Of a stretch of 64,000 bases of DNA, positions 370 through 11,144 are shown in pieces (position 1 is the stretch's first letter; every line of letters starts with the position of its first letter). The position numbers were made by a program, and so were the translations under genes. Where the stretch lies: the IMG/VR virus record IMGVR_UViG_3300045051_000909, positions 64,001-128,000 of that record. One strand, written 5' to 3'. The notes under the pieces were generated by a model that was not told where the DNA came from, ran no database searches, and saw only the letters and a program-made list of their open reading frames with translations. This stretch comes from a virus. Its lineage: Duplodnaviria > Heunggongvirae > Uroviricota > Caudoviricetes.

Positions 370-653
370 TGCGCATTTCGCACGACTCCCCGATAGCTCG
401 AGCGGTGCTAATCCTAGACGCACAGGATCAGCTCGTTGGCATGGTGCATAGCCTCGACACGGAGGCAAACACCATTACTAGGCTGGTCGTGCGTGATGGC
501 CGCGCTGTCGCAGCCGAGAATGGACAGTGGCTCACGACTACTGAGTCACTCGACGGATACCGTGTGTTCATCGACTTGGCGTACCTGGAACCGCAGATCA
601 AGGATCTCCTTCCCCTTTCCGACGAGGTGACTTCAAATGTACGTGATCATTGA
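369..653 (+). CDS. hypothetical protein
   Basis: ORF track 201..653; ATG at 369 coupled by TAATG to the upstream ORF is the likelier start; overlaps the next gene. Confidence 0.6.
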   Translation: MRISHDSPIARAVLILDAQDQLVGMVHSLDTEANTITRLVVRDGRAVAAENGQWLTTTESLDGYRVFIDLAYLEPQIKDLLPLSDEVTSNVRDH

Positions 654-1140
654 TATCGACGGGACGTTGGCGGATAACAGCCACCGGGAAGGGCACATCA
701 ACAAGAACCCCAAGGATTGGGAGACCTTCCTCAAGCCTGAGCTCGTGGCCCAGGATAGCGTCCTGCCTGGAGCTCAGCGCGGCATCGAGAATCTGCGTAA
801 CCAGAAGCACGAGCTCATCTTCCTGACTGGCCGAAACGAGGGGTTGCGCCTCGTCACTGCGGATTGGCTGCAACAACACTTCGGGCTCGTCGTTAACGAG
901 GAGTGGCTGCTGATGCGCCCCATCGGCAATATGCTCAAGCCGACAGAGTACAAGCGCGAGCAGATCCAGCGTCTAGTGACCACTATCGACCGTAGCCACG
1001 GTTTAGTGTTTGTGGACGACGATCCGTTTATGTGGCCGATCTATCGGGAGTACGGCCTTTGCTTGAAAGCCCCTGACTGCTGGCAGGTACTGTTTCCTGA
1101 GGCACAAAATCTTCCAGAAGAAACACATTGGCGGAAGTAG
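637..1140 (+). CDS. HAD-superfamily phosphatase (PNKP phosphatase-like)
   Basis: IIDIDGTLAD (DxDGT), FLTGR, LLMRP, FVDDD motifs. Confidence 0.85.
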   Translation: MYVIIDIDGTLADNSHREGHINKNPKDWETFLKPELVAQDSVLPGAQRGIENLRNQKHELIFLTGRNEGLRLVTADWLQQHFGLVVNEEWLLMRPIGNMLKPTEYKREQIQRLVTTIDRSHGLVFVDDDPFMWPIYREYGLCLKAPDCWQVLFPEAQNLPEETHWRK

Positions 1141-1143
1141 CCC

Positions 1144-1623
1144 ATGCCCTGCTGCGTAGCTTGCGGTAAGATTAAATCACGGTGTCAGTTTTATGTGCAA
1201 CGGCGTCAACTAGCCGACGGCTCACTAAAGGGTTACCGGACAAAACGATGCAAGCGCTGTCATAACAAGTACACACTGACACACTGTGACACTGTACGTC
1301 GAAAACGGATGCAGCGTGAGTGGGCACAGCGTGGGCGCCGTGAGCGGTGGCTGCGGCGCAAACAATCACGACACGCCTGGTTGGAGGTGTTGAAAGCAAA
1401 GCCTTGCGCTGATTGCAGGCGCGTGTTTCCACCTGTATGTATGGACTTTGATCACCGAAATCCGCGCACTAAGTACATGTCGATAGCTGCGATGATTAAT
1501 CAAGTACGTTCAAAGACCCGCATTCTCGCCGAGATCAGAAAGTGTGATCTCGTGTGTGCTAACTGTCATCGATTACGGCATGCACGACGTAACGGATGGA
1601 TGAGCCACCGCACTGATGGGTGA
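1144..1623 (+). CDS. HNH endonuclease
   Basis: CADC...MDFDHRNP...KCDLVCANCHRLRH. Confidence 0.8.
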   Translation: MPCCVACGKIKSRCQFYVQRRQLADGSLKGYRTKRCKRCHNKYTLTHCDTVRRKRMQREWAQRGRRERWLRRKQSRHAWLEVLKAKPCADCRRVFPPVCMDFDHRNPRTKYMSIAAMINQVRSKTRILAEIRKCDLVCANCHRLRHARRNGWMSHRTDG

Positions 1624-1628
1624 GACGT

Positions 1629-1973
1629 ATGCGCATCATCATCGCAGGCTCTCGCCAGTTCACAGACATTAAGTTGATCGACGAAGCCGTGCAGAAGAGC
1701 GGGTTCGAGGTCACGGAAGTTGTCTCGGGTGGAGCGCGCGGCGTCGACTCCCTTGGTGAGCAGTGGGCTCGTTCCAAGGGCCTGCCCACCAAGCGGTTCA
1801 TCCCTGACTGGCGTCAGGGGAACTTGGCTGCGCTGCATCGCAATGGCGAGATGGCCGCGTACGCCGAAGCCTTGGTCGCCGTTTGGGATGGCCGTAGTCG
1901 GGGTACGCAGAATATGATTTATCAGGCCGAAGCGCGTAAGCTACCTGTCTTCGTCCTATACCGAGAACCCTAG
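1629..1973 (+). CDS. SLOG/YspA-like (DUF2493-type) protein
   Basis: MRIIIAGSR, VVSGGARGVD, RNGEMA, AVWDGRSRGT. Confidence 0.85.
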   Translation: MRIIIAGSRQFTDIKLIDEAVQKSGFEVTEVVSGGARGVDSLGEQWARSKGLPTKRFIPDWRQGNLAALHRNGEMAAYAEALVAVWDGRSRGTQNMIYQAEARKLPVFVLYREP

Positions 1974-2556: not shown

Positions 2557-3912
2557 ATGCGCGACCAATTTCTACGCGGTGCAGCGACAGCGAGCACCAA
2601 GTTCGCTGTTGACGTCCGTGACGTAGCGATGATGGAGCAGATTCTCCACGCGCTCGTTCCCGCAGGCCAGAAGATGCCGGTTCCGCTAGGCTCCATTACA
2701 GGCCTACATAGCGGTATGACAGATACGGGGGACAGTCCCATCGCGCGGGGCCTTCTTACCGGCGCAGGCATGCATTTTGGGGATCGTGCTGGCCAAGCCG
2801 TTGGTGGTACGGTGGGTGGCCTTGTGGGTACGGGTGCCGGCATGCTTGCCCGCGGTCTTGGCGCTGGCCCGCACGCTGGCGGGAATATTTACAACTTCAG
2901 TTCGCTGCTCGGTAAAGCCTTGGGCGGTTACGTCGGTGCACAGGAAGGTGCACACGCAGGTCAGGCGTTTGCGGATCGCAATAAGCCAAAGCCTGAGCCG
3001 AAGAAGCCCGAAGTCGAGAAGAAGTCCGCACTAGATGAGTTCTTCCTCAAGGAAGCAGCGGGCTTCGGTGCCAAGAGCATGGGCACGATGATGCGCCAGC
3101 AGGCGCTCAACGACGCCTTCCGCGCTGCACCTCGCCAGGGACCGCAGATGCCCGTAGCGCGCCAGGTCCCCATGGTCCAGATGGCACAGCAGAGCGGCGG
3201 TCGCAATATCGCGCTCCCTGGCGCCAACGCGCCGTCGCTCGAGCTCGACATGACGCCGAAGCAGTTCGCCTATGGCTACAAGGGCGGCAGCGAGAAGCAG
3301 GCGTTCACACTATTCGACTTGATCTCGCATGGTGTGATGGGTGCTGCGTGGGGTAACGCTACCTCAAACCCAGAGCACCAGCTACTAGGAACTACGCTGG
3401 GTGCCTTAGGCGGTATGGGGGGTATGGTAGGAGGGGCGCTCACCCCCACAATCCCAGGAAACGGAACACCTAGCATTATTGCCAATGCAATGCGGCCTGT
3501 CGCAGGCGCTGTTGCGGGCGGCGCTCTCGGCGGGGCAGCGACACGACTCCTTCCGCGCCACGAAGAAGAGAAGGGTGCCGCCGACGCTTCGGCTTCCTTC
3601 GGTCTCCAGAAAGAAGCAATTGCGCCGCTCCTCGGCCTTGCTGCTCGCGCCGTGCCGTGGATGGCTCGCACAGCGGTTCCATGGTTGGCCAAGAACCTCG
3701 GCAAGGGCGCTCTCGTCAATGGTGGCATCAGTGCTGGGACGTCTCTGGCCCAAGGACAAGGGGTTGGTCAATCGCTCGCCAGTGGTGTTGTCGGAGCAGG
3801 CGCCGGTATGATCAAAAATCCCGTGCTGAGCGCTGGCGCCAACATGGCAGGCGGCATGGCCGTCGATAAGCTCATGGGTCCTAAAGCATCGATGGGCAAT
3901 GGTCTCAACTGA
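2557..3912 (+). CDS. Gly/Ala-rich multi-module protein with K-x-A linkers (candidate virion internal protein)
   Basis: AGGAG SD; hydrophobic Gly-rich blocks separated by STKFA, EKKSALDEFFLKEAA, SEKQAF, GLQKEA; virion role is inference. Confidence 0.7.
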   Translation: MRDQFLRGAATASTKFAVDVRDVAMMEQILHALVPAGQKMPVPLGSITGLHSGMTDTGDSPIARGLLTGAGMHFGDRAGQAVGGTVGGLVGTGAGMLARGLGAGPHAGGNIYNFSSLLGKALGGYVGAQEGAHAGQAFADRNKPKPEPKKPEVEKKSALDEFFLKEAAGFGAKSMGTMMRQQALNDAFRAAPRQGPQMPVARQVPMVQMAQQSGGRNIALPGANAPSLELDMTPKQFAYGYKGGSEKQAFTLFDLISHGVMGAAWGNATSNPEHQLLGTTLGALGGMGGMVGGALTPTIPGNGTPSIIANAMRPVAGAVAGGALGGAATRLLPRHEEEKGAADASASFGLQKEAIAPLLGLAARAVPWMARTAVPWLAKNLGKGALVNGGISAGTSLAQGQGVGQSLASGVVGAGAGMIKNPVLSAGANMAGGMAVDKLMGPKASMGNGLN

Positions 3913-3920
3913 GATGCCTG

Positions 3921-6900
3921 ATGATCGAATTCGAGAAGGTTGCGCTTCACGCGCTTGACCGTCTTCGGGAGCGGACGCAGCTCGACCCGGATCTGATTCC
4001 TCTGCTCGAGGCCGAGGCTGACCGCGTTTCTAACGAGGTCCCGCCCGGCAAGTACTGGCTGCCGTTGCGCGACGAGCATGGACGGGTCATCGCTATCGCC
4101 GCGTTCAAGACGGTGCAGACCTACTACGGTCACAAGCTCGTCTTGGCCACGGTCCTCGCGCCAACGATGGTGCCACAAGGTACCTCGCTTGAGCACCTGA
4201 TGCACCCGCCACAGTTGGCCAAGGCTGCGGCATATGCTCCGGGCATCAAGGAGAAGGGCGACAAAGGCGACCATACCGACCTTCCCGTTGGTTTGGCTGA
4301 CTTTGTAATCCATAAGCATGACGCCGAGCGCGCGGGGCTGCACTACGACATCCGTATCGGAACACCGAAAAGCGGCCTCATCTCCTGGGCCACTCGTGAA
4401 AACCTCCCAGCACCCGGGGCGCGCATCACGGTCTTCCGTCAACCCGTGCATGAGTATTCATACAAGGACTTTGAAGGGAAGATCGAGTCTGGTTACGGCA
4501 AGGGCGACGTTAAGATCCACGACTCCGGGAAGGCCATCGTTACACAGGTTAAGCCCGAGCTGCTTCAGTTCACGCTGGGTCACAAGAAGTACCCACAGCG
4601 GTTCACCCTGATCCCCTGGAAAGAGGATCAGTGGTTGATGATGAACAGCACGCCTGTCTCACCGATCCCCTATAAGAAGCAGCACTACAAGACGCTTCCG
4701 CCCTCGAAGGCCGAAGACTTCCTGAAGAAGATTCCGACGGGAAGCTCTGTACAAGCGAAGATCGACGGGGCAGCGGGGCTAGTCACCTTCAAGAATGGCA
4801 AACTGGAAGTTGCGTCCTACCGCACGGCGGGGCCGACAGGGTACCCGATCATCCACACTGAGCGCGTCTTCGGTGGTCGCCCGGAAGTATCTCTCCCGGC
4901 ACACCTGAAGGGGACGATCCTTCGCGGCGAAATTTACGGCGTAAGGGACGGCAAGGTCATTCCGCCGCAGGAGCTCGGGGGCATCCTCAACGCAACCACC
5001 AACAACTCGCTAGAGATGCAGAAGGAGCGCGGCATCTCGTTGAAGATGATGGTGTTCGACATCCAGCAGTACGGCAAGAAGCCGACTGCGGGTATGCCAT
5101 ACAATGAGCGTCAGAAGCACGTCGATGAAGTTCTCAAGCATCTCCCGAAGGATCGGTTCCACGTCCCGGAAGAGGCCACGACACCGAAGGGCGCGCTGGA
5201 CCTTTTTCACAAGGTTCGTTCTGGCGGCCATGCGCTTACTCACGAAGGTGTTGTGGTGCACCTGCCTGAAGGTAAGCCCGTAAAGATCAAGTTCGTAGAC
5301 GACCACGACGTCTACATTACTGGCTTCTTCCAAGGAGAGGGCAAGTACGCCAAGGGTCACGTAGGCGGCTTTACCTACGCCTTCTCTAAGGACGGGAAGA
5401 CTGTTGGCCGTGTGGGTACCGGCTTGAGCGATGAATTGAGGAAAGATATGCACGAGAATCCCGACGATTTCATCGGGCGCGTAGCACGCGTGCGTTCACA
5501 GGAAGTGCTTCCCTCCGGGGCACTGCGTGCACCTTCGCTCATTGCTCTGCACGAGGACTACCCCGCCGCCAAGACGGCGGGGGAGATGTTGGAGCAGTTC
5601 CTCATTAAGATCGCGGATGACGCCGTAGCGCCGCAGATCCCCTCACACGAGTACTCGCCTGCGGAACTGCGCCTACTTCAACAGCGCTTTGGCCGTCTTC
5701 AAGGTTACCTGCGGGAGCACGGGGCCTTCGCCGGAACAGGGCACCAGCGCATCGTTATCCCCAAGAACGTATTGACTGAGGCCGACATCAATCAGTTGGG
5801 GTTCAAGCCTGTCAAGATCGCCATCCCTGAATCGGGACAGGATCGTTTTGAGTCTTTCCGGCACCCGGACAACCTCTTCCACATCCACTCGCATCCCGAG
5901 GGGTGGACGATGCACGAGGACCGTCACCCCGCCTCGACGATGCTCATCACCAAGCTTCAGCACCCCTGGGACAAAGCCAAGGCTTTTTTTCAGGGTCTCC
6001 CGCATGTCGTTACTGAGGGTATGCCAGGGCTCTTCTACTACACCAAGGGCAAGGTGCGTGACGCGCGCTCGACAGCGCAGGCAGTGCTCGAGGAAATGGA
6101 TCCTGGTGTCATTAAGCGCTTTCAAAGCTGGAAGCCCTCACCAAGCTATGCGCCGCCACCTGAGGTCACCGAGGAGTTGAAGGCGGCTGCCGAGAAGCTG
6201 TTCGGCGGAAAGGCCGATGGTCGGTCTGACACCGAATTCAATCCTGCGGCAATTGCGGCGGGCGTGCAGGTAGAACGCGAGCATACGTCGAACAAGGCGG
6301 TCCAGAAGGAGATTGCGAAGGACCACCTGTCCGAGGACCCCTCGTACTATCAGAAGCTAGAGAAGATGGAGAAGAAGGGGTTTGAGCAGTTTCTATTGAA
6401 GTCCGCGAAAGAAGCTCCAGCCCCGAAGACCGAGAAGCCGAAGTCGACCGAGAAGCCCAAGGCCGAGCCGCCAAAGAAGGCAAAGCCTGCGCCGAAGCAT
6501 GAGCTCAACATCCCCAAGGATCAACCCAATTACCAGCACACGCAGCTCTTCACAAAGCTGCTCGAAAAATCTCCGGTTCCGGTGAAGCTGGAACCGAAGG
6601 CGTACACGCACCCGGAGGACAACGGGTTTTATGACTTCGTCAACAAGCGGATCAGACTCCTGTCACCAAATCACGATTCCTTGGCACACGAAATAGGCCA
6701 CGCGCAGTACGATGAGACCCCGCTCGGATGGGCGCTGCAAAGTCGTGCCCTGTATCCGCAGATTTGGAGTACTCCGTTCGCGTCAATAGCAGGTGGCGTA
6801 ACATCGGGCCTTCTTCGTGGCTCTGGATCCTTGAAAGGACAGGGTACAGCGTCCCTGCTCAATGAGGCCGCCGGGCTACTAGCACCACTTCTACTTAGCG

Positions 6901-7730
6901 CCCCTGCTTTGTGGTCGGAGTACAACGCTACAACGCGCGGGCGAAAGCTCCTTGAGGGCGTGGGCGCAACGCCTGAGGAACTGGATCACTACGACAAGGG
7001 CCTCTGGAAGTCATATAAGTCATACTTGACCCTCCCGACTATCTCCGCGCTAGGCGGCGCCGTTATGTACGGCCTGAGCGCCTTGAACGCTCCTAAATTT
7101 GGATCAGAGAAAACCGCCGACTGGAAGGACATCCTCCTCGGCGCGGGCAAGGGCGCTGTGTTACCGGGGCTTTTCGGCGCAGCGGCTGGCGCCCTGACGG
7201 ACAGTGAAGACCGGGCGCGTGGAGCCCTGAAGGGTGGCCTCACAGGGGCAGCTATTGGTGCCATCCCCGGCGGGATTCAAGGACACCTCGAAGGCAAAGC
7301 GACAGCCGCTAACCAAGCGCTCTGGGGGCATAAGGATGTCGCCGATCACTATACACAGCAGGCAGGTGACGCAGCTCGGGCTATCGAACGCTGGCAATAT
7401 TCGCCGCCGGATGTGAAACTGCCTCCTGGGGGGCGTACTGCGGTTCGTACGCCGCAGCTACACGACCTAGGTAAGCTATTCGACCGCTACGACTTTCATA
7501 CGCAGCAGGCAGAGCTTGCTAACACGTTGGCGGACCAAGCGCGTGCGCACTGGCAACACCTTGGTGGGCAGGCTGCTGGCATGAACAAGTGGCGGTGGGG
7601 CGCGGTGCCTGCGGGTATGCTCGCGGGCGGGCTCGCAGCCTACGCACCTGAGAAGCCGGAGTGGGAGAGTGGTGGCAAGGTCTCATCGCTTCGGAGGTTA
7701 CTTCATCAAGGAAGCGAAAGTTGTCACTGA
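3921..7730 (+). CDS. multi-domain protein: LigD-type 3'-phosphoesterase + ATP-dependent DNA ligase + DUF5661-like + HExxH metallopeptidase + Gly-rich modules
   Basis: FVIHKHDA..LHYDIRI and HEYSYKDFEG (PE); QAKIDG, EGVVVH, KIKF, GRVGTGL, ALRAP (ligase); GVQVEREH..IAKDHLSEDPSYYQKL (DUF5661); AHEIGH. Confidence 0.85.
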   Translation: MIEFEKVALHALDRLRERTQLDPDLIPLLEAEADRVSNEVPPGKYWLPLRDEHGRVIAIAAFKTVQTYYGHKLVLATVLAPTMVPQGTSLEHLMHPPQLAKAAAYAPGIKEKGDKGDHTDLPVGLADFVIHKHDAERAGLHYDIRIGTPKSGLISWATRENLPAPGARITVFRQPVHEYSYKDFEGKIESGYGKGDVKIHDSGKAIVTQVKPELLQFTLGHKKYPQRFTLIPWKEDQWLMMNSTPVSPIPYKKQHYKTLPPSKAEDFLKKIPTGSSVQAKIDGAAGLVTFKNGKLEVASYRTAGPTGYPIIHTERVFGGRPEVSLPAHLKGTILRGEIYGVRDGKVIPPQELGGILNATTNNSLEMQKERGISLKMMVFDIQQYGKKPTAGMPYNERQKHVDEVLKHLPKDRFHVPEEATTPKGALDLFHKVRSGGHALTHEGVVVHLPEGKPVKIKFVDDHDVYITGFFQGEGKYAKGHVGGFTYAFSKDGKTVGRVGTGLSDELRKDMHENPDDFIGRVARVRSQEVLPSGALRAPSLIALHEDYPAAKTAGEMLEQFLIKIADDAVAPQIPSHEYSPAELRLLQQRFGRLQGYLREHGAFAGTGHQRIVIPKNVLTEADINQLGFKPVKIAIPESGQDRFESFRHPDNLFHIHSHPEGWTMHEDRHPASTMLITKLQHPWDKAKAFFQGLPHVVTEGMPGLFYYTKGKVRDARSTAQAVLEEMDPGVIKRFQSWKPSPSYAPPPEVTEELKAAAEKLFGGKADGRSDTEFNPAAIAAGVQVEREHTSNKAVQKEIAKDHLSEDPSYYQKLEKMEKKGFEQFLLKSAKEAPAPKTEKPKSTEKPKAEPPKKAKPAPKHELNIPKDQPNYQHTQLFTKLLEKSPVPVKLEPKAYTHPEDNGFYDFVNKRIRLLSPNHDSLAHEIGHAQYDETPLGWALQSRALYPQIWSTPFASIAGGVTSGLLRGSGSLKGQGTASLLNEAAGLLAPLLLSAPALWSEYNATTRGRKLLEGVGATPEELDHYDKGLWKSYKSYLTLPTISALGGAVMYGLSALNAPKFGSEKTADWKDILLGAGKGAVLPGLFGAAAGALTDSEDRARGALKGGLTGAAIGAIPGGIQGHLEGKATAANQALWGHKDVADHYTQQAGDAARAIERWQYSPPDVKLPPGGRTAVRTPQLHDLGKLFDRYDFHTQQAELANTLADQARAHWQHLGGQAAGMNKWRWGAVPAGMLAGGLAAYAPEKPEWESGGKVSSLRRLLHQGSESCH

Positions 7731-9141
7731 GCTCAAGCCCCACCAACAGCGTGTAGTTGAGCGCATGCAAGACCCCGATCAGCGCGGCCTGGTGGCCGTG
7801 CACGGTCTTGGCTCGGGTAAGACGCTCACGAGCATCGCTGTTGCTGACGCCCTCAAGCTTCCGGCGGACGTGGTGGTTCCTGCGGCGCTCCAGGGCAACT
7901 ACCAGAAGGAAGTTGCGAAGCACACCGACAAGCCGTTCCCGATGAATCTCCAGAGCCTCGAGCTGACGGCTCGCAAGGGTGGCGGCTCGTTGCAGAACCC
8001 GCTTTTGATCGTGGACGAGGCTCACCGTGTGCGTAACCCCGGGAAGACGCAGTCGGCGTTGATGAAGTCTCCGGCCAGCAAACGGCTACTCCTGACGGGC
8101 AGCTTGATGTACAACCACCCTGGCGACATGGCTGCACCGATCAACTTGGTGGCGGGCTCCGGAACCCTGCCTTCGAAGCAGAACGAGTTTGAGAATCAGT
8201 TTATCCAGGAGCGGCGTATCAGCCCTGGCCTCTGGGGAGAGCTCGTCGGTAAACCGGGCCAGACGAAACTCGAGATCAATCCTCTGATGAAGCCATACTT
8301 GGAGAAGGTCCTCCACAAGTACGTCGACTACCACCCGGGGTCAACGGAGAACTTCCCGCAGACACAGGAACAGACGCTAAAGGTTCCGATGTCCGGGCGG
8401 CAGCGCAAGATCTACGACGCAGTTATGGACGCCGCTCCGCCTTGGGTGAAGGATAAGATTCTTCGGAATCTACCTCCCACGAAAAGCGAAGCAAAGGAAC
8501 TCAACGCCTTCCTAACAGGCATCCGGCAGGTGTCGAACAGCACGGCTGCGTACGATCTGAAGAACCCTGCGGAGAGCCCGAAGATCGACCGGGCTGTGGC
8601 GGAGCTCAAGCAAATGCTTGAGGCGAATCCACGCGCAAAGGCCATCGTCTACTCCAACTTCCTGCCTTCGGGTATCAACCCCTACAAGGCCAAGCTGGAT
8701 GAGCTGAAGGTCCCTTACGGTGAGTTCACAGGAGAGATGCCGCGTCTAAAGCGCGACCAGCTCGTTCGTGATTACAACGAGGGCAAGCTGCGCGCGCTGC
8801 TACTGTCCTCGGCCGGCGGCGAAGGCCTCGACCTAAAGGGTACGCGCCTGATCCAGTTGCTCGAGCCCCACTGGAACGAAGAGAAGTTGAAGCAGGTACA
8901 GGGGCGCGGCATTCGCTTCAAGTCACACGACGACCTACCCCCGGAGGAGCGGAACGTCTTGATTCAGCGCTTCCTCGCGACTAGACCCCGGGCCGGGTTC
9001 TGGGAGAAACTACGTCTCAAGGATCCTGGCACGTCGGTAGACGAGTATCTGCACGACATGGGTGCGCGCAAGGAAGAATTGAAGGGCCAGTTCAAGGCAC
9101 TGCTCGCACAATCGGAAAAGGAGAAGACACATGCTGCGTAA
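7669..9141 (+). CDS. SNF2/SF2 helicase
   Basis: LKPHQQ, HGLGSGKT, IVDEAH, LLTGS, SSAGGEGLDL, QVQGRGIR. Confidence 0.9.
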   Translation: MVARSHRFGGYFIKEAKVVTELKPHQQRVVERMQDPDQRGLVAVHGLGSGKTLTSIAVADALKLPADVVVPAALQGNYQKEVAKHTDKPFPMNLQSLELTARKGGGSLQNPLLIVDEAHRVRNPGKTQSALMKSPASKRLLLTGSLMYNHPGDMAAPINLVAGSGTLPSKQNEFENQFIQERRISPGLWGELVGKPGQTKLEINPLMKPYLEKVLHKYVDYHPGSTENFPQTQEQTLKVPMSGRQRKIYDAVMDAAPPWVKDKILRNLPPTKSEAKELNAFLTGIRQVSNSTAAYDLKNPAESPKIDRAVAELKQMLEANPRAKAIVYSNFLPSGINPYKAKLDELKVPYGEFTGEMPRLKRDQLVRDYNEGKLRALLLSSAGGEGLDLKGTRLIQLLEPHWNEEKLKQVQGRGIRFKSHDDLPPEERNVLIQRFLATRPRAGFWEKLRLKDPGTSVDEYLHDMGARKEELKGQFKALLAQSEKEKTHAA

Positions 9142-9730
9142 CATCGCTGTTTTTTTTTGTCGGTTGGGCGTAGTCGCGTACCTTAGCCTCCGGCTTTACC
9201 AGGTAAAGTCGTGGTTGTATCGCTGGGTGTTCGAGCGCAAGTATCGGGATACGCCGCTTCCTACGTACACCAGTATGGATGACCTGGTGGCATTCATCCA
9301 CAAGCTAATCTGGGTAGCCGATTCCTGGCAGCAACTTTGGGACGCATTCTCGTACCCCGGCAAAGTCCAGTGGATCGGGACCGAGGGTGATCGGCGAGTC
9401 GGCGATTGCGATGAGTTCGCGATCTACAGCGCCACCGCGATCCTGAAGGCAAACGCAGCTGGATACCTCAAGGAGTACCGGAATCCGCGCATCCTTACCG
9501 CTTGCTGGATGGACTCCAAGGGAAAGCTGGGAGGCCATAACGTCTGCCTGCTTGAGCGCGACGGTGGGGTCGCTTACATGGATTACGGCGACCCGATTCA
9601 CTTCGACACGCTACAAGATCTGGTCGCGAGCGTTATCGCACGCTACACACGCGAGGAGAACGGCGCGTGTATTGGATGGGGCGTCACGGATCCCGTGACG
9701 CTCCGCCCTATCGAGGTTCACTGGTCCTAG
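9131..9730 (+). CDS. membrane-anchored transglutaminase-like Cys protease
   Basis: N-terminal hydrophobic segment; GDCDEFA, GHNVC, YMDYG give a Cys-His-Asp triad. Confidence 0.65.
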   Translation: MLRNIAVFFCRLGVVAYLSLRLYQVKSWLYRWVFERKYRDTPLPTYTSMDDLVAFIHKLIWVADSWQQLWDAFSYPGKVQWIGTEGDRRVGDCDEFAIYSATAILKANAAGYLKEYRNPRILTACWMDSKGKLGGHNVCLLERDGGVAYMDYGDPIHFDTLQDLVASVIARYTREENGACIGWGVTDPVTLRPIEVHWS

Positions 9731-10154: not shown

Positions 10155-11144
10155 GTGACCGTGAACAAGACCTGTACACGTTGCCTCCATGAGTACCCTG
10201 CCACCCCCGAGTACTTCTTTCGCCTCGCACGTAGTGAGGACGGCCTTAGGAATCAGTGTAAATCCTGTCTCGGGAACCAGCCTAGTAAGCCAAAGCCCCC
10301 ACCCGCTATGCAGCGCGAGCCTACCATGCCACCAGCGAAACGGCCTCGTAAACCGTCTGGGCAGCCTAAGGTGGCGCGCGCGCCCGACCTGAAAACAATA
10401 CTCATCCTACCCGACCTGCATGTCCCCGAACATGACCAAATCGTCTGGGACGCACTTCTTCAGTGGCTTCGTGAACACCCCGTATCAGAAATCGTGTTGC
10501 TGGGCGACTTCCTGGAACTCGCTAGCTGCTCACAGCACCCTGGCACCGACTTCACCTCTCTCAACGAAGACTTCAAAGCAGGGCGACAAGTACTTAAGGA
10601 GCTCCTGACAGCTTGTCCGAAAGGACACATCACACTCCTTGAAGGCAATCATGAGACACGATTGGCGCGCATCACTGCGTCAAAATTGCCACAGCTGGCT
10701 GACAATTTGTCAATCGCAGAAGGTCTGCGACTCGCTGAAATAGGGGCAACATGGGTCCCTGAGGATGAGCAACCCATTACGCGCGGGGACCTTGAGCTCA
10801 TTCACGGACACCAGGCTCTAGGTGAAGGCTTCGGAGCGCGCTACCACGCCGCCAAGATGGTCGACGTCTATGGTGAGCCGGGGCATACCGTCGTCTACGG
10901 TCACACGCACAAGCAGCAGGCCATCCTGAAGGCCAGTAAGCGCGGGAATCAGTTGGGCCTAGGACTTGGTGCGTTGCGCACTATGCGCCCAGACTGGCTG
11001 CACGGGCGTGAGGCGGGCTGGTGCCATCAGTTCGCAGTGGCCTGCGTTCGCGCAAATGGGCATACAGACGTGATGGTCGTCTCCATTAGGGACGGCGCAT
11101 TCGTCTGGGACGGTAAGCTATACACCGGACGACGTCATGGCTGA
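10155..11144 (+). CDS. calcineurin-like metallophosphoesterase with N-terminal Zn ribbon
   Basis: CTRC..CKSC; PDLH, LGDF, EGNHE, IHGH, YGHTH. Confidence 0.85.
   Translation: MTVNKTCTRCLHEYPATPEYFFRLARSEDGLRNQCKSCLGNQPSKPKPPPAMQREPTMPPAKRPRKPSGQPKVARAPDLKTILILPDLHVPEHDQIVWDALLQWLREHPVSEIVLLGDFLELASCSQHPGTDFTSLNEDFKAGRQVLKELLTACPKGHITLLEGNHETRLARITASKLPQLADNLSIAEGLRLAEIGATWVPEDEQPITRGDLELIHGHQALGEGFGARYHAAKMVDVYGEPGHTVVYGHTHKQQAILKASKRGNQLGLGLGALRTMRPDWLHGREAGWCHQFAVACVRANGHTDVMVVSIRDGAFVWDGKLYTGRRHG

Follow-up and report, generated by a model that had tools for sequence, protein, structure and literature searches.

In phage T4, the capsid targeting sequence (CTS) is carried by the internal proteins IPI-III and by Alt, and is removed by the protease gp21 (Mullaney and Black 1996, reviewed in PMC9026906). 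In the phiKZ-like phage SPN3US, gp245 cuts the propeptides of ejection proteins at A-x-E (PMC10052503), and the polyvalent proteins of phages have been predicted to be packaged and to undergo autoproteolysis by embedded MPTase domains (Iyer et al. 2017; PMC5512222). Each of the three components is thus known already: CTS-type leaders, gp21-type proteases and polyvalent proteins. Here we describe a locus in a window of 64,000 nucleotides (bases 64,001-128,000 of a 194,266-bp IMG/VR virus record), where the consecutive genes g123, g124 and g125 carry a common leader peptide ending in hydrophobic-x-Lys-x-Ala in front of unrelated protein modules. We propose that the three gene products are virion cargo and that their leaders double as prohead-protease sites, a reading to which we give a probability of about 0.55.

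The likeness to the T4 CTS lies in a short N-terminal peptide that is common to unrelated, apparently packaged proteins and ends in a head-protease cut site, here a putative one. The same site recurs in scaffold, capsid protein and the protease itself, and the candidate protease has a gp21-like predicted fold. However, the T4 site is Ile/Leu-x-Glu, the proteins described here do not resemble those of T4 in sequence, and the motif is here reiterated inside long multi-domain proteins. With the polyvalent proteins (PMC5512222) the locus shares unrelated, rapidly shuffled enzymatic domains, SNF2 and InPase domains in relatives, a peptidase-like module and a predicted co-delivery with DNA, but it differs in having a defined junction peptide that would tie processing to the head protease. 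SPN3US is likewise a large myovirus whose virion contains a multisubunit RNA polymerase and numerous internal head proteins and whose gp21-like protease also cleaves itself, whereas its A-x-E motif belongs to N-terminal propeptides and internal punctuation of multi-enzyme chains was not described (PMC10052503). The nearest cultured relatives are distant, namely Salmonella phage Arash (OQ632216) and Vibrio phages D69, D148 and D181; an enrichment of K-x-A in head proteins is common to Arash, D69 and the phage studied here. The literature searched contained neither a junction peptide tying polyvalent-protein processing to a head protease nor this motif. In a text search of PMC5512222 the word "linker" was absent, and neither the pair of LigD phosphoesterase and ligase nor the anchor domain described below was among the matches; in the Arash paper (PMC10585845) the word "protease" has no occurrences.

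The leader peptide in g123, g124 and g125

The sequence-only reading had described g123 and g124 as polyproteins in which a recurring K-x-A linker separates unrelated domains. All the peptides that it quoted were found in the translations, at the following positions of the window (Phi, hydrophobic residue).

2557 to 3912, plus strand: g123 (P0001), 451 residues, Gly/Ala-rich and Gly-zipper-like
3016 to 3060, plus strand: long leader copy 1, EKKSALDEFFLKEAA, residues 154-168 of g123
3289 to 3306, plus strand: SEKQAF, peptide in the g123 translation
3598 to 3618, plus strand: FGLQKEA (K352), short site preceding the Gly-zipper segment of g123
3921 to 7730, plus strand: g124 (P0002), polyvalent protein of 1269 residues
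3921 to 3944, plus strand: MIEFEKVA, N-terminus of g124
4215 to 4232, plus strand: LAKAAA (K101), junction of N-domain and LigD phosphoesterase
4311 to 4613, plus strand: LigD 3'-phosphoesterase, residues 131-231 (PF13298, E 9e-12)
4710 to 5540, plus strand: ATP-dependent DNA ligase, adenylation and OB domains, residues 264-540
5565 to 5618, plus strand: long leader copy 2, AAKTAGEMLEQFLIKIAD, residues 549-566 of g124
5688 to 6197, plus strand: anchor domain, residues 590-759, His-rich (FHIHSHPEGWTMHEDRH)
6174 to 6200, plus strand: ELKAAAEKL (K754), junction of anchor domain and DUF5661
6258 to 6377, plus strand: DUF5661, residues 780-819 (PF18905, E 5e-11)
6369 to 6416, plus strand: long leader copy 3, EKKGFEQFLLKSAKEA, residues 817-832, at the C-terminal end of the DUF5661 helix
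6687 to 6701, plus strand: HEIGH (HExxH) motif of a small candidate zinc-peptidase-like module
7101 to 7124, plus strand: GSEKTADW (K1064), junction ahead of the C-terminal Gly-zipper module
7669 to 9141, plus strand: g125, SNF2-type helicase of the type found in polyvalent proteins
7669 to 7719, plus strand: N-terminal leader of g125, MVARSHRFGGYFIKEAK, of the Phi-x-K-x-A type

The long form of the motif, [DEQ][EQ]F[FLIM][LIM]K.A, had exactly three matches in the proteome (261 products of a simple open reading frame call on the whole genome, 60,181 residues in total), and all of them fall in g123 and g124, a restriction that is well beyond chance. The short form K.A occurred 304 times and was not significantly enriched over the expectation from composition, with 14 instances against 10.3 in g124 and seven against 3.3 in g123. 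On these counts, enrichment of bare K.A in the two genes was rejected as evidence; the short form alone proves nothing and takes its meaning from position, and some of the short instances on the earlier list could be due to chance. The recurring linker of the sequence-only reading is thereby confirmed in part.

The motif is better described as hydrophobic(-2)-x-K(0)-x-A(+2) with acidic or small residues after it and, often, Phe at -6. Besides its long leader copy, g123 carries two short Phi-x-K-x-A-like sites, and one of them, FGLQKEA, is the same type of peptide as the FG[LV]EKTAI N-termini of the stand-alone proteins g16 and g239. More generally, the variant FG[LVS][EQ]K[TE]A precedes Gly-zipper modules in stand-alone g16 and g239 as well as inside g123 and g124.

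A profile search with the anchor domain of g124 returned 290 clusters (50% identity) among 1.84 billion proteins, in which the domain is N-terminal, internal or C-terminal and the host proteins measure 108-2454 residues. Stand-alone anchor proteins start with a leader of 10-22 residues, for example M..LxAFxxELxK(L/E/I)A, which is the long form. Ahead of the domain, at a distance of 11-25 residues, K.A is enriched 3-4-fold. The pattern [LMIVF].K.A was found in the leader of 29 of the 58 N-terminal copies, compared with 4.0 ± 1.8 (maximum 11) in 500 composition-matched shuffles, and before 20 of the 91 internal copies (6.3 ± 2.3 in shuffles). The site logo shows Leu at -2 in 33 of 63 sites, Asp, Glu or Ala at +3 to +5 and Phe at -6. 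A common leader thus precedes unrelated modules (anchor, SNF2, Gly-zipper and others), both as their N-terminus and internally. It had also been suggested that the linker doubles as a capsid-targeting signal, an idea that gains partial support from the stand-alone versions of the module, which have the motif as their N-terminal leader.

In another sub-lineage (P0035, P0040, P0042, P0044, P0050, P0064, P0078 and others) the anchor domain is preceded by ...NTIEGLxHGGxA...R..TDFGSGYQG, and this TDFGSGYQG-type peptide may be the sub-lineage's own leader or processing signal. The occurrence of a different peptide at the same place fits lineage-specific leaders on a mobile cargo domain. The domain itself was modelled with a predicted local distance difference test (pLDDT) score above 90 and has no Pfam or PHROG family; against PDB structures, the best Foldseek E value was 0.3 and the best VIA-align Z score 3.4 over 48,161 chains. 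With His115, His117, His126, His156, Asp128, Glu98 and Glu160 (alignment numbering) invariant, it may represent a new metal-binding fold of phage cargo proteins. An HEDxH stretch inside it was considered as a zincin motif and dropped, its Glu being replaced by Lys in P0007-P0009.

Regarding the position of the motif, a weight matrix was trained solely on the sites of other phages and applied with a threshold of 9 bits. It gave six hits in g123-g125 (3.7% of the residues of the proteome) and six in the head block g239-249 (6%). None of the hits in g124 (K101, K754, K827 and K1064) falls within a homology-defined domain other than at its edge, and the same is true of K563 in the second long motif; among eight polyvalent proteins only one of 32 hits was inside such a domain, against about 10.8 expected. 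Homologues with a shuffled domain order show K-x-A at each joint. The junction of N-domain and LigD phosphoesterase reads MQKAA or SKAAA in homologues, that of anchor domain and DUF5661 is kept as ELKAAAE or ELKTAAS, and the helicase joint in P0004 and P0007 reads LLLKEAA or EKEAA.

An AlphaFold2 model of g124 residues 540-880 (98 sequences, mean pLDDT 77) is consistent with these positions. Long leader copy 2 was predicted to be an isolated helix (pLDDT 52-72) with K-x-A at its end and coil beyond, K754 lies in a weak helix between domains, and copy 3 forms the end of the DUF5661 helix, beyond which there is a disordered Pro/Lys linker. The motifs therefore end low-confidence helices between confidently folded domains (pLDDT >90), and were not found inside folded domains, a location that would have spoken against the polyprotein idea. 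The long form is predicted to be an amphipathic helix.

The module order of g124 is N-domain, LigD phosphoesterase, ATP ligase with OB, anchor, DUF5661, Pro/Lys linker, HEIGH module and Gly-zipper tail. The N-domain (residues 1-100) is conserved and had no family in the Pfam and PHROG scans. The ligase assignment is supported by PF01068 (E 6.5e-07, 29.7 bits with a cut-off of 26.2) and phrog_114 (E 1.6e-31), while its OB domain (PF14743) scored below its own cut-off (21.5 against 28 bits). LigD_N, ATP ligase with OB, DUF5661, the anchor and an HExxH module are thus combined in one phage protein of 1269 residues, and homologues contain the same modules in other orders, with SNF2, InPase, SWIM, AAA and ligase as partners. 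On this domain composition, g124 qualifies as a polyvalent protein sensu Iyer et al. 2017. HEIGH is conserved as HELGH in the relative L003, conservation being limited to the HExxH motif; the module had no Pfam match at E values up to 5 and no PHROG family, and a word-based search for homologues among shorter proteins returned this phage's own fragment alone. No Pfam or PHROG family was found for g123, and a P0001-like gene likewise precedes the polyvalent gene in L003.

The SNF2 helicase is encoded separately here but is fused to the polyvalent protein in the relatives P0004, P0007 and P0033, and the P0004 locus is syntenic with that of g123-g125. A programmed frameshift joining g124 to g125 was considered and rejected: because the 62-nt overlap has no slippery run and GGAG stands 8 nt before the GTG start of g125, the two are regarded as separate genes.

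The motif in the head module and the candidate protease g247

In the head block g239-249, K.A was found 66 times against 30.2 expected (2.19x). The other spacings showed no comparable excess (KA 0.43x, K..A 0.8x, K...A 1.0x, A.K 1.13x), and this spacing comparison is the strongest control. K.A was at 0.95x in the rest of the proteome, at 2.24x in Arash gp218-225 and at 2.42x in the head block of Vibrio phage D69, whose RNA polymerase and tail genes gave 0.8x. Small scaffold-like head proteins contain 6-11 copies of the motif, and g249 (230 residues, scaffold-like) has 11 K-x-A sites by eye and 12 by regular expression. The N-terminal arm of the capsid protein carries RIKEAAA, LVKEAGAA or LTKEAGAA across this phage, Arash and D69.

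The sequence-only reading had called for a prohead protease elsewhere in the genome, and a candidate was found in g247 (genome 183,709-185,754, outside the window), which belongs to the head block, with the capsid gene g253 four genes further downstream. The best structural match of its N-domain model (26 sequences, pLDDT 72) was T4 gp21 (5jbl_B), with Z 8.3 and a root-mean-square deviation of 3.1 Å over 130 residues. Herpesvirus proteases scored Z 5-6.5; the Z scores of 6-7 for MCE barrels indicate that the fold class is a common one. His127/128 and Ser179 are invariant in 26 homologues. No other head-protease family was found in the genome by Pfam searches, and whole-genome Pfam searches for ClpP, S49, HK97 capsid and MPTase-PolyVal (PF18818) gave zero matches. 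The tentative assignment of the candidate is based on similarity of fold, and not on a sequence family.

The g247 domain is flanked by conserved [ST]KTASEA on its N side and by M[ML]KKVA on its C side, the latter in a disordered linker of varying length, and in Arash gp222 and D69 0270 the corresponding positions on either side of the protease domain are occupied by L-x-K-x-A. Such a distribution, with sites crowded into scaffold-like proteins, present on both sides of the protease and found again in the N-arm of the capsid protein, is classically that of prohead-protease sites. As with CTS-type leaders, one leader stands before unrelated cargo, and its end is the motif found in head proteins, at the protease flanks and on the capsid arm. 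In several g247 homologues (P0161, P0238, P0239, P0245, P0269, P0271) of about 1030 residues, intein or homing-endonuclease domains (PF14528, PF14890) are present, a sign that the gene belongs to the conserved core of the clade.

Two further genes, g205 and g206 (genome 141,815-143,597, outside the window), stand out with respect to the motif. No other gene exceeds g205 in its surplus of K.A (13 against 2.8), and the highest score of the weight matrix was obtained in g206; in the relative L002, a homologue of g205 is situated two genes upstream of the portal. Both probably encode additional head or scaffold proteins at a distance from the head cluster.

Packaging, cleavage and alternative explanations

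The product of g125 is 38% identical to the Arash virion protein Gp217, for which 38 unique peptides and 1148 spectra were reported from virions, as compared with 1333 spectra for the capsid protein, 877 for the portal and 1210 for RNA polymerase beta' (PMC10585845). The Arash orthologue of g125 is therefore abundant in virions, at a level comparable to capsid protein and portal. In addition, L002 (177 kb), the portal of which is 34% identical to g231, encodes a leader-bearing protein with anchor and Gly-zipper directly upstream of the portal gene and after the g205 homologue.

The claim that g123 and g124 are packaged polyproteins cut at K-x-A is favoured by leader conservation, the head-only enrichment, the protease flanks, the modelled junctions and the Arash helicase in virions, and is weakened by the chance level of bare K-x-A and by a protease assigned by fold. 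Motif uniqueness, junction position, leader conservation, head-specific enrichment and protease-domain flanking are computed, whereas packaging and cleavage of g123 and g124 and the scissile bond are inferred. Our proposal for how these features would work together is as follows. Ahead of each module, the leader would form an amphipathic helix of about 10-20 residues ending in hydrophobic-x-Lys-x-Ala and followed by acidic or small residues, and this peptide would be the recognition site of the head-maturation protease g247 with its T4 gp21-like fold. During prohead assembly, the leaders would carry the cargo proteins into the scaffold core. The protease would then cut at the motifs, so that scaffold-like proteins are degraded, the capsid protein and the protease itself are trimmed, and the polyvalent proteins are split into separate polypeptides. 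The products released would be the N-domain, phosphoesterase plus DNA ligase, anchor, DUF5661, the HEIGH module, the Gly-zipper membrane modules and the SNF2 helicase, which would be ejected along with the DNA. With the leader reiterated inside long proteins, one gene could yield several cargo proteins.

As for the scissile bond, cleavage after Lys (Phi-x-K/x-A) would be slightly favoured by analogy with the hydrophobic P3/Glu P1 rule of characterised gp21 relatives (T4 I/L-x-E, SPN3US A-x-E) and with HK97, where the cut is after Lys, although cleavage after Ala (K-x-A/) would be an equally possible alternative. The characterised gp21-type proteases all cut after Glu (PMC10052503, PMC12991175), which weighs against our reading and means that a site based on Lys and Ala would be a new specificity. 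We put forward only tentatively, at somewhat less than even odds, that hydrophobic-x-Lys-x-Ala may serve as an "address and cut here" code in the largely uncultured clade of Arash-like myoviruses of about 180-195 kb, with a gp21-fold protease that is no longer Glu-specific.

Several other observations also speak against cargo with cleavable leaders. The Arash study lists 116 "virion" proteins, some of which may be contaminants, and it used trypsin, so that a cut after Lys would be invisible (PMC10585845). Arash Gp217 has no N-terminal leader, and the g123/g124 locus is outside the head gene cluster. K.A is not enriched in g123-g125 taken together (22 against 17.2 expected), the weight matrix is weak genome-wide (23 hits above 9 bits in the proteome, 10.8 in shuffles), and the composition of the linkers, rich in Ala, Lys and Glu, somewhat inflates the hits at junctions. 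Pfam S77 and S78 (PF03420, PF04586) are unmatched in the whole genome, the g247 profile had zero matches among PDB sequences, and its Foldseek E value of 0.17 is not significant, the Z score of 8.3 coming from a second-look alignment only.

Among the alternatives, the one that survives best, although we regard it as unlikely, is that the leader serves as a helix solely for docking or targeting, and that the cargo is packaged and ejected uncut in the manner of the N4 virion RNA polymerase. The predicted amphipathic character of the long form would suit such a helix, some polyvalent proteins travel full length according to Iyer et al. (PMC5512222), and Arash Gp217 is packaged without a leader. 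However, the shortest leaders, with Lys at residues 3-6, are too short for a helix, and the 6-11-fold reiteration in scaffold-like proteins such as g249 and the sites on both flanks of the protease are classical patterns of cleavage sites.

A more doubtful alternative holds that g123-g125 encode multi-enzyme proteins for repair or anti-defence that stay in the cytoplasm and never enter the virion, with the motif as a non-proteolytic helix-capping or linker element. This would agree with the surroundings of the locus, which are nucleic-acid enzymes (PNKP phosphatase, HNH, SLOG, metallophosphoesterase) and not head genes, and with the unremarkable raw K.A count. It does not account for the use of the same peptide as N-terminal leader of unrelated modules (anchor, SNF2, Gly-zipper), for an enrichment specific to the head proteins of three phages and to one spacing, or for the abundance of the helicase orthologue in virions.

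Least probable in our judgement is processing by a peptidase in or beside the polyprotein (the HEIGH module or the product of the downstream gene g126), possibly once the proteins have been ejected into the host: g124 and L003 share the HExxH motif and autoproteolysis has been predicted in the polyvalent-protein literature (PMC5512222), yet there was no Pfam peptidase match, MPTase-PolyVal included, none of P0003-P0009 has a g124-like HExxH module although K-x-A is present at all their joints, P0007-P0009 have no HExxH at all, and the head-block enrichment and the sites flanking g247 would be left unexplained. All three alternatives are less consistent with the head-specific and spacing-specific enrichment than cleavage at the motif.

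If cargo with cleavable leaders is the correct reading, polyvalent proteins, the processing of which has been guessed at and credited to their own peptidases, would be joined with a T4-style targeting and head-protease system. A testable peptide code would become available for a lineage with a cultured member, Arash, and the virion cargo of its uncultured relatives would be predictable from sequence. Gene fusion and fission at such loci would be explained. In the more tentative reading of a clade-wide code, the code would be portable, so that any enzyme gene gaining a leader would become capsid cargo, and genes could fuse and split freely with the protease restoring the same mature products, which would explain the evolution of polyvalent proteins and give a sequence rule for the injected proteome of uncultured phages. 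The leader might also be used to load foreign proteins into the capsids of this lineage, as the CTS is for T4, and a gp21-fold protease with a non-Glu specificity would be added to those described. In the clade-wide reading, the injected proteome of this phage would include a DNA-end-repair kit of phosphoesterase and ligase. An injected cargo consisting of LigD-type phosphoesterase and ATP ligase, SNF2 helicase and membrane-active Gly-zipper modules would suggest repair or protection of the incoming genome.

Source genome and neighbouring genes

The source record is rated 100% complete and has a guanine plus cytosine content of about 58%. The genome is of the myovirus type, with a weak tail-sheath match (phrog_279, E 6.5e-07), and encodes multisubunit RNA polymerase genes. 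Identity to Arash is 31% for the portal, 39% for the capsid protein, 33% for the g247-like protein and 38% for the SNF2 helicase, and both RNA polymerase genes also match Arash. The g247-like proteins of D69, D148 and D181 are about 30% identical, and copies of g247 at 53-79% identity were found on hundreds of uncultured contigs of 140-196 kb. A comparison of the region with 50,697 phage records by blastn gave zero matches. In tblastn searches against phages, the g124 N-domain and residues 860-1269 also had zero matches, the stretch 540-840 matched via DUF5661 alone, and the g124 modules were not found in Arash or D69. When about 40 large genes were scanned with PHROG, the majority of structural genes stayed nameless, and protein-atlas look-ups gave weak leads only.

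Just upstream of g123 and g124 (window 637-1973) there are genes for a PNKP-type HAD phosphatase, an HNH endonuclease and a YAcAr/SLOG-domain protein, and a metallophosphoesterase with a Lar-like N-terminus is encoded at 10155-11144. With the ligase and phosphoesterase, which look packaged, these genes give the impression of a nucleic-acid end-repair neighbourhood. Immediately downstream of the helicase gene lies one further reading frame.

9131 to 9730, plus strand: g126, 199 residues, with an N-terminal hydrophobic segment

A GDCDEFA...GGHNVC...D pattern, recognised in g126 by eye, is reminiscent of transglutaminase-like cysteine peptidases; no family was found in the Pfam and PHROG scans. 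The P0004 locus has a gene for a protein of 193 residues at a comparable place, one gene further downstream than g126.

Outside the window, the RNA polymerase beta-like gene (genome 168,209-173,074; L010:3209-8074; 1621 residues) is fused to the N-terminal part of beta' and has an InPase domain (PF18823, E 2e-31) inserted at residues 607-728, while the remainder of beta' is a separate gene (L010:9023-10822). Two endonuclease VII paralogues are also encoded outside the window (genome 185,738-186,157 and 2,097-2,615), one of them inserted between the protease-like gene g247 and the scaffold-like g249.

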